IMG/VR virus record: IMGVR_UViG_3300025889_000070
Source: a virus
Lineage: Duplodnaviria; Caudoviricetes
DNA: 64,000 nt
Reading direction: 5' to 3' (one strand)
Part shown: piece after piece, positions 42,959-43,158 of the stretch
Layout of the letters: the number at the start of each line of letters is the position of its first letter
How positions within the stretch are numbered: position 1 is the stretch's first letter
Program-made: the position numbers and the translations under genes
Notes under the pieces: generated by a model
The model's database searches: none
What the model saw: the letters and a program-made list of their open reading frames with translations, nothing else
Told to the model about the DNA's origin: nothing

Positions 42959-43158
42959 TAGGGCATTGCGGCCCTATGACGAGAAGTGGCTGAGAACCAC
43001 AAAACTAACGCACGATGCCAAGTAGGCGAGGGGCCGGGGCTCCTCGGTGAACCAAAACATGGTTGTATGCTCGAAAGGCATAACCTATTGGGAAGAACGA
43101 GAGACGACCTCTGGTGGAGCCATCAATAAACAACGGCGCGGAAGCCAAGTTGTCCCCT
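42959..43158 (+). ncRNA. candidate ~200-nt highly structured non-coding RNA
   Basis: GC-rich intergenic region with at least 6 hairpins, including an 8-bp CGAGGGGC/GCTCCTCG stem and a stem with a GAAA-containing loop. Confidence 0.6.

Follow-up and report, generated by a model that had tools for sequence, protein, structure and literature searches.

The 64,000-nucleotide (nt) stretch analyzed here, IMG/VR virus record IMGVR_UViG_3300025889_000070 (hereafter the window), comes from an uncultured marine jumbo phage. At positions 42935-43157 of its plus strand it carries a non-coding RNA element that is almost certainly a member of a real, conserved, structured RNA family, as judged from comparison of related sequences. 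The element was conserved above the level of coding sequences, its helices covaried, and it occurred in one strong copy per genome beside shifting neighbors, with tRNA genes or terminators adjoining it. The window copy consisted of a core (42935-43027) and a 3′ domain (43028-43153) with hairpins P4, P5, P6, P7, and P8. A sequence-only reading had proposed a multi-hairpin intergenic RNA at 42959-43158, and the sequence it quoted was the actual window sequence. Its observation was partly confirmed and its interpretation partly supported: the fold and the non-coding nature held, but several details did not.

The element shared 85 to 87% nucleotide identity between the window and its relatives L002 and L003 (loci are given as L numbers). 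In the same comparison, the flanking genes showed identities of 66 to 68% (97-amino-acid [aa] open reading frame [ORF]), 68 to 73% (264-aa ORF), and 76 to 77% (nucleotidase and PhoH genes). The identity of the element thus exceeded that of every flanking gene (66 to 77%).

Long-form relatives were collected by synteny searches and by exact-word scans with GATGCCAAGTAGGCGAG, ACGACCTCTNGTGGAG, ACGATGCCAAGTAGGCG, and CCNATGATGAGAAGTGG. The long-form lineages besides the window were L002, L003/L115/L124, and the partial L122, together with the near-identical copy L123. The exact-word scans yielded close relatives and chance matches only, and a single metagenome scan gave one more variant. Syntenic contigs that seemingly lacked the element contained a 125-nt short form (L009, L006, L011, L120, L153, and L174), which shared the 5′ part alone. 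A covariance model (CM), R1, comprising hairpins P0, P1, and P2 with their junctions, was built from the long and short forms. Two degenerate junction patterns, filtered with R1, retrieved 24 further loci in clearly different phages, including contigs of 194, 204, and 228 kb, and the family, at first limited to 3 close relatives, came to comprise 25 distinct sequences on uncultured phage contigs. The window sequence at 42940-43006 scored 60.5 bits (E = 1e-12) against R1. Because R1 was built partly from the window sequence, the independent support comes from 16 divergent members outside the R1 seed, which scored 27.8 to 51.4 bits. Each record contained one strong R1 match, including the 228-kb contig and the 204-kb genome (100% complete), the latter with one extra weak match (15 bits, E = 0.2). 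The R1 search found a single family copy in the window. A candidate second copy at 31640-31704 (+) (13.9 bits, E = 0.12) shared GGCUAG and a GC hairpin but lacked P1 and was rejected; it resembles a terminator, that of a small winged helix-turn-helix gene, and not a family member.

Covariation was measured on the 25 distinct sequences. Standard pairs occupied 94.2% of cells, compared with 71.3% in shuffled alignments, and none of 500 shuffles reached the observed value. In the R1 alignment, 14 of the 18 pairs changed on both sides, and the covariation score was 0.544 versus 0.170. When the partners were slid by 1 to 3 columns, pairing fell to 36 to 48%. The G-U pairs in P0, P2, P4, P6, and P8 would be A.C mismatches if read on the opposite strand; therefore, the plus strand is the RNA strand. 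Members had no common reading frame, their indels were 1 to 2 nt long, and no frame stayed open across the members, in agreement with the earlier claim that the region holds no ORF. A small ORF (AUG AUG AGA...) was rejected, as its frames differed between forms and the window copy had 5 codons only. Covariation, G-U pairs on one strand, and the missing frame together bear out the proposal of a structured non-coding RNA on the sense strand. Single-sequence folding was not significant (z = −1.67 for the plus strand and −1.24 for the minus strand), and the evidence therefore rests on comparison with relatives.

The core begins with the leader GACGU (42935-42939), which corresponds to RGACGW immediately 5′ of P0. 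This motif was present in 20 of 23 aligned upstream flanks, with the exceptions L002 (GGACAC), L003 (GUACAC), and L120 (CCACGU). Hairpin P0 (42940-42955), defined by the R1 alignment, pairs GUCC (42940-42943) with GGAC (42952-42955) around the loop GGUAACAG; four of its five pairs were altered on both sides, and 99% of cells were paired. The end pairing GGGAC/GTCCC suggested previously was not retained, as GGGAC is the 3′ strand of the strongly covarying P0. P0 is joined to P1 by the junction C-UAG-U (42955-42959), which was the same in 25 of 25 distinct members. Hairpin P1 (42959-42976) is the predicted stem UAGGGC/GCCCUA (42959-42964 with 42971-42976); two of its six pairs changed on both sides in the family, and pairs 28/53 and 31/50 covaried. 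The conserved junction UGACGAGAA (42977-42985; family YGAYGA(GA)A) leads to hairpin P2 (42986-43000), in which GUGG (42986-42989) pairs with CCAC (42997-43000). This stem had also been recognized from the sequence, and all seven model pairs were altered on both sides somewhere in the family. Its loop was not conserved (CUGAGAA, CUGUUAA, UACC, GUGGUA, and others). Because the P2 loop varies freely, its reading as T-loop-like and the analogy to T-box or RNase P elbow-binding motifs are without basis. Two other ideas about P2 were discarded. Anticodon-loop mimicry (CUGUUAA in L002) was not conserved, and a long-range pairing of AGUGGCU..CCAC with GUGGAGCCAU, suggested by RNAalifold, was dropped for the local P2, which was extended and covarying in other lineages. 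A GACG-hairpin-TAACGC core at 42978-43011 that several intergenic elements of the window would share looks like a chance likeness, as GACGA reads GAUGA in relatives and R1 did not match the other sites.

P2 is followed by an A-rich linker (43001-43016) that contains CGCA (43009-43012) and then CGAU. The P1 loop UGCG (42967-42970) is complementary to this CGCA, and across the family the P1 loop was complementary to the 3 to 5 nt just 5′ of GAUG in a co-varying manner: UGCG:CGCA in the window, UGUG:CACA in L122, and elsewhere GGC:GCC, UGC:GCA, GGCU:AGCU, and GGUCU:GGGCC. Permuting the loops among members matched the observed complementarity in 19 of 5,000 trials. The P1 loop and the linker thus probably form an H-type pseudoknot enclosing P2, with UGCG and CGCA as its proposed 5′ and 3′ strands. 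The alternative pairing GGCATTGCG/CGCA..ATGCC proposed from the sequence survives in its UGCG:CGCA part, as a likely 4-bp pseudoknot, and not in the remainder. Target pairing by a common small RNA seed was rejected, as the single-stranded linker differs between forms.

The core ends with the mini-hairpin P3, GCC-AAGUA-GGC (43017-43027). In two thirds of lineages, (C)GAUG was followed by a 3-bp mini-hairpin with an (A)AGUA(A) loop (GAU-GCC-AAGUA-GGC at 43014-43027 in the window). Five stem combinations occurred across 18 instances, all of which were fully paired; the feature was degenerate or absent in the short forms and a few lineages. An initial P3 proposal, AGUAGG/CCUAUU enclosing P4-P6, was left as a possibility for the long form only, the mini-hairpin being the family-wide feature. 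The CCGAUGGUAGUAGCC module (GAUG plus mini-hairpin), about 30 to 100 nt past P2 in L194, L196, and L208, was tandemly duplicated in one lineage. Its first 11 nt, and CCGAUGGUAGU in L194, L196, and L199, match the loop-E strand of Escherichia coli 5S rRNA.

The 3′ domain is lineage-specific across the family, and in the window it contains five local hairpins. P4 (43028-43045; GAGGGGC/GCUCCUC) and P6 (43066-43082; UAUGCU/GGCAUA with the loop CGAAA) carried the compensatory changes of this domain, and both had been predicted from the sequence. Two pairs of P4 changed in close relatives (G-C to G-U to A-U, and A-U to G-C), and P4 was exchanged for AAUGUU/AACAUU in L182; the outer pair of P6 alternated between U-A and C-G. 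P5 (43050-43064; AACCA/UGGUU) was retained in close relatives with one A.G cell. P7 (43094-43112; AGA.CG/CG...UCU) takes the place of the AGAG/CTCT stem proposed earlier, which produced A.C mismatches in relatives. Variation in P7 was confined to the loop, and its pairs were invariant among relatives and hence uninformative. The conserved single strand GGUGGAGCCAUCAAUAA (43113-43129), whose GUGGAG recurs in long, medium, and L009-type short forms, precedes P8 (43130-43153; ACAACGGC/GCC..GUUGU). This is the proposed stem ACAAC-GGC/GCC-GTTGT, which held with one-sided, G-U-compatible changes only. Across the long-form relatives, 98.7% of the cells of the window 3′ domain were paired, compared with 31 to 44% when the partners were slid.

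The tail CCCCUAAAUUUUUU (43154-43167) was delimited by alignments and a terminator scan. In relatives, this region contains an intrinsic terminator hairpin; the window copy lacks the hairpin and keeps the U-run at 43162-43167. This U-tract is compatible with Sm/Hfq-type binding, and it could equally be just a terminator remnant. The next gene's sigma-70-like promoter, TTGACA-16-TATCAT (43170-43197, +; 11/12 match with TG), marks the end of the unit, as had been stated. The stop codon given as the 5′ boundary was incorrect: the RNA begins about 20 nt earlier and takes in the end of the 97-aa ORF (42665-42958, +), whose last codons (final 19 nt) lie inside the RNA and whose UAG stop is the family's invariant UAG. 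The description of the element as GC-rich was true to a modest degree only (G+C content, 0.49 to 0.52 versus ~0.42).

Next, the element was compared with known RNAs. No match was obtained in Rfam 15 at the gathering level, and at E ≤ 10 only noise was found, outside or at the edge of the element. The short, medium, and large relatives also matched no Rfam 15 family. In line with the sequence-only reading, which could not assign it to several of these classes, the element belongs to none of tRNA, transfer-messenger RNA (tmRNA), RNase P, signal recognition particle RNA, 6S RNA, introns, or the manA, wcaG, IMES, and RAGATH motifs (no Rfam 15 match at E ≤ 10). That reading had named an Rfam match and a lack of covariation as the outcomes that would speak against a new RNA; no Rfam match was found, and covariation was abundant. 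The blastn "distant" searches with four different members against 50,697 phage records gave no cultured-phage match, a megablast search with 6 kb around the element gave none, and R1 found nothing over the whole PA5oct and T4 genomes. Scanning 185,579 prokaryote species genomes with one pattern produced 4 chance matches, none of which was confirmed by the CM. The family matches no Rfam family, and the window copy is a long-form member without a terminator. Orphan Rfam motifs such as IMES, manA, and wcaG are likewise conserved, covariation-backed intergenic folds of uncultured phages.

Some local likenesses were seen. For 5S rRNA, RF00001 gave no match, and GAUGGY-AGUA-RCC makes its own covarying mini-hairpin here. 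AUGAUGA resembles the C box of archaeal C/D-box small RNAs and was the source of weak sR3 and sR24 matches (13 to 16 bits versus thresholds of 36 to 41). No conserved D box was found in the aligned members, in which CUGA occurred only in the P2 loop of the window. The 5S loop-E and C-box likenesses are therefore at the motif level only. A set of 8,495 unnamed RNA candidates of 29 to 151 nt has been catalogued from IMG/VR (PMC10690425). These are shorter than the window RNA, and the catalogue may contain a fragment of it.

The genomic contexts of the family were then examined. The carriers are uncultured aquatic jumbo phages with replication genes resembling those of T4 and PA5oct. The upstream neighbors were unrelated: a p97-like ORF, a 264-aa ORF, a p58-like ORF, a MoxR-type ATPase, a helix-turn-helix protein, or a tRNA gene. 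Downstream, the genes encoded the 58-aa protein, an NT5C-type nucleotidase, a TctA transporter, a GGACT-like protein, or uncharacterized ORFs and were likewise unrelated. The RNA was kept where the p97-like ORF was gone (L006, L011, and L182) and without the 58-aa gene (L002 and L003). In four loci, a tRNA gene ended 13 to 17 nt before P0: tRNA-Leu(UAA) 13 nt before it in L194, L197, and L208, and a tRNA with the anticodon CUA, at 3658-3754 (−), 17 nt before the RNA in L201. The distance from an upstream tmRNA gene was 0.55 kb in L207 and 1.4 kb in L199, and a five-tRNA cluster lay 0.43 kb upstream in L176. An intrinsic terminator was found downstream in six lineages, with implied RNA lengths of about 135 to 420 nt; it followed the last hairpin in all long-form relatives, whereas the window copy had no such hairpin. 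Promoter-like hexamers, read by eye, occurred downstream in L179 and L200.

Several details of these loci were recorded separately. The L201 tRNA with the anticodon CUA would read UAG, and the invariant junction of the RNA holds UAG. The tmRNA gene is standard in L207 (796-1417, +) and permuted in L199 (12-314, +). The tRNA island of the 228-kb contig L176 contains two tandem glutamine riboswitch aptamers at 3585-3691 (−) (RF01739; 62 and 59 bits). In the short-form contigs L120 (1035-1358) and L159 (1140-1463), the p97-like ORF continues in another frame through P0-P2 and stops at the UAG of the conserved GUAGG, whereas in other contigs it stops at the invariant C-UAG-U.

The placement of the element is where stable RNAs sit: past tRNAs, near tmRNA, and at operon ends with terminators. 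It behaves like a gene of its own and not like an appendage of a particular neighbor. Our favored explanation, drawn from comparative sequence evidence and given about an even chance of being correct, is a stand-alone, stable, trans-acting non-coding RNA. In this phage, early transcription is most likely, with the RNA forming the end of the 264-aa/97-aa operon; it would start at the sigma-70-like promoter at 41859-41886 (+; consensus scan 10/12 with TG), which lies outside the RNA and presumably drives it through this unit. Host processing enzymes would then cut the RNA out of a longer transcript, either an mRNA tail or a tRNA precursor, and its folded core with sequence-invariant junctions would mediate the action in trans. 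Its action would most likely consist of binding a protein, and neither of base pairing with a target nor of controlling a neighboring gene. We infer the transcription, processing, stability, and trans action of the RNA as well as its protein partner.

The T4 species 1 and species 2 RNAs (rnaC and rnaD), phage-encoded stable RNAs of 119 to 139 nt, were the nearest comparison. According to the annotation, they lie directly past a tRNA gene and are released from a tRNA precursor. Similarly, several family members lie 13 to 17 nt past a tRNA or close to tRNA or tmRNA genes. In contrast to T4, the window copy is 11.7 kb from the tRNA cluster and behind protein genes. With filters off, R1 detected no homology to either RNA, as rnaC went unmatched and rnaD scored no more than 3 bits, and the folds differ. 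The family is thus best read as a phage stable RNA that would be of the T4 species 1/2 type in genomic behavior only, with an unrelated fold. To our knowledge, the two T4 species RNAs have stayed orphans for half a century, and very few jumbo-phage non-coding RNAs have an assigned role. Pseudomonas phage PA5oct, the closest cultured relative by the clamp loader (56% identity), has four unnamed RNAs, ncRNA001-004, in transcribed ORF-free regions (PMC7318152). None of these is near the clamp-loader/PhoH region, unlike the window element.

Several points weigh against a stand-alone RNA or against the way in which it was defined. Lacking the terminator hairpin, the window RNA would stay embedded in a longer transcript if no processing released it. 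For about half of the lineages, the 3′ domain extends up to where the next gene has its ribosome-binding site, which a cis-acting leader fits too. Unpaired invariant nucleotides around a pseudoknot characterize aptamers and ribozymes as much as they do protein-binding sites. No cultured phage tested, by blastn among the 50,697 records or by the CM on PA5oct and T4, carries the RNA. Furthermore, the structural alignments were fitted to the R1 model, and the sampling patterns fix part of the junctions, so that "invariant" positions are partly invariant by sample selection.

Among the other explanations, a cis-regulatory leader (a riboswitch or a protein-dependent attenuator), in which sensing of a ligand or protein would fall to the core and the role of expression platform for the downstream gene to the variable 3′ domain, is considered unlikely. 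Riboswitches are usually laid out in this way, with a conserved core and a variable 3′ part. The short forms L009, L006, and L166 place the core right before a strong terminator; about 10 nt past this terminator, with no promoter between, come the ribosome-binding site and the start of the 58-aa gene. In L194, L196, L199, L204, and L181, the 3′ domain abuts the next ribosome-binding site. However, the downstream genes are unrelated, and the element therefore has no consistent 5′ untranslated position before related genes. The RNA of L002/L003 and L182 ends at a terminator facing a convergent gene, and a promoter separates the RNA from the next gene in the window, as do the hexamers read by eye in L179 and L200. 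Conservation with compensatory changes also persists where the 58-aa gene is absent.

A self-cleaving ribozyme or a dedicated processing signal, which would separate the upstream ORF or tRNA from the downstream sequence, is decidedly unlikely. Self-cleaving ribozymes are classically found between phage genes, and in many members P0 starts 6 to 9 nt past an ORF stop or 13 to 17 nt past a tRNA end. The compact core, the pseudoknot, and the invariant unpaired nucleotides would also suit a ribozyme. On the other hand, no Rfam ribozyme matched (hammerhead, twister, pistol, hatchet, hepatitis delta virus-like, and others). The hammerhead-core likeness of UGAUGAGAA comes without a stem II between GA and GAA, and the GA is missing in L002, L003, and L181 and is thus dispensable. 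A big additional 3′ domain is, moreover, kept within lineages.

A passive 3′-end module of early mRNAs, which would protect against exonucleases or aid pausing or termination with no function of its own, is improbable. The element is always on the sense strand, and it often closes a transcription unit together with a terminator. Nevertheless, its invariant junctions, pseudoknot, and core of about 95 nt far exceed the needs of a stabilizer, it is also found past tRNA genes, and the window copy keeps the entire fold without a terminator. That the element is no functional RNA but a decayed gene remnant, a DNA-level site, or chance hairpins is highly improbable: the unremarkable single-sequence folding energy would fit, but this reading is contradicted by the covariation data (14 of 18 pairs compensatory), by conservation above the coding level, by G-U pairs on one strand only, and by the lack of a conserved frame.

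The conserved pseudoknotted core might belong to a new functional class, although we hold this doubtful: it could be a self-cleaving ribozyme, a ligand aptamer, or the RNA component of a phage ribonucleoprotein, in which the Sm-like protein that had been suggested as a partner might take part. A partnership with the Sm-like protein would be a special case of the favored stable RNA. Such a ribonucleoprotein might act on host translation or tRNA metabolism, an idea that arises because the RNA adjoins tRNA and tmRNA genes and, here, the initiation factor 1 (IF-1) gene region. In jumbo phage genomes, the genes for tRNAs, tmRNA, and translation factors occur in islands. In any case, the analysis delineates an uncatalogued RNA family whose consensus is clear, whose covariation is strong, and which probably contains a pseudoknot; the family is a concrete object for biochemistry and is usable as an annotation marker for uncultured aquatic giant phages. 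If the core were catalytic, ligand binding, or part of a ribonucleoprotein, it would constitute a new RNA class; if it were only a stable decoy or scaffold, such RNAs would still be a regular part of jumbo-phage early programs.

On the plus strand of the window, the promoter-like site is followed by the 264-aa ORF, the 97-aa ORF, the ORF-free stretch, the next promoter, the 58-aa ORF, and the nucleotidase gene. The gp44-type clamp loader gene is at 40341-41258, and the PhoH, NT5C-type nucleotidase, and PrkA kinase genes are also near the element. The 58-aa ORF (43227-43403, +) showed a subthreshold match to the SutA RNA polymerase-binding domain (24.4 bits; cutoff, 29.3). In three lineages, a homologue is a neighbor of the RNA, on the downstream side in the window and L009/L120 and on the upstream side in L179. 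The Rfam scan of the window detected seven tRNAs, all away from the element, the nearest ending at 31237. An IF-1 homologue (PF01176, E = 1e-22) is encoded at 31723-31941 (+), about 490 nt past the tRNA cluster; a small winged-helix gene (31382-31648) lies before it. The Sm-like protein gene is cut off by the window start. In addition, a full PrkA/DUF444 (YeaH)/SpoVR triad (E = 1e-170, 2e-150, and 1e-164, respectively) is present at 46372-51053 (+).
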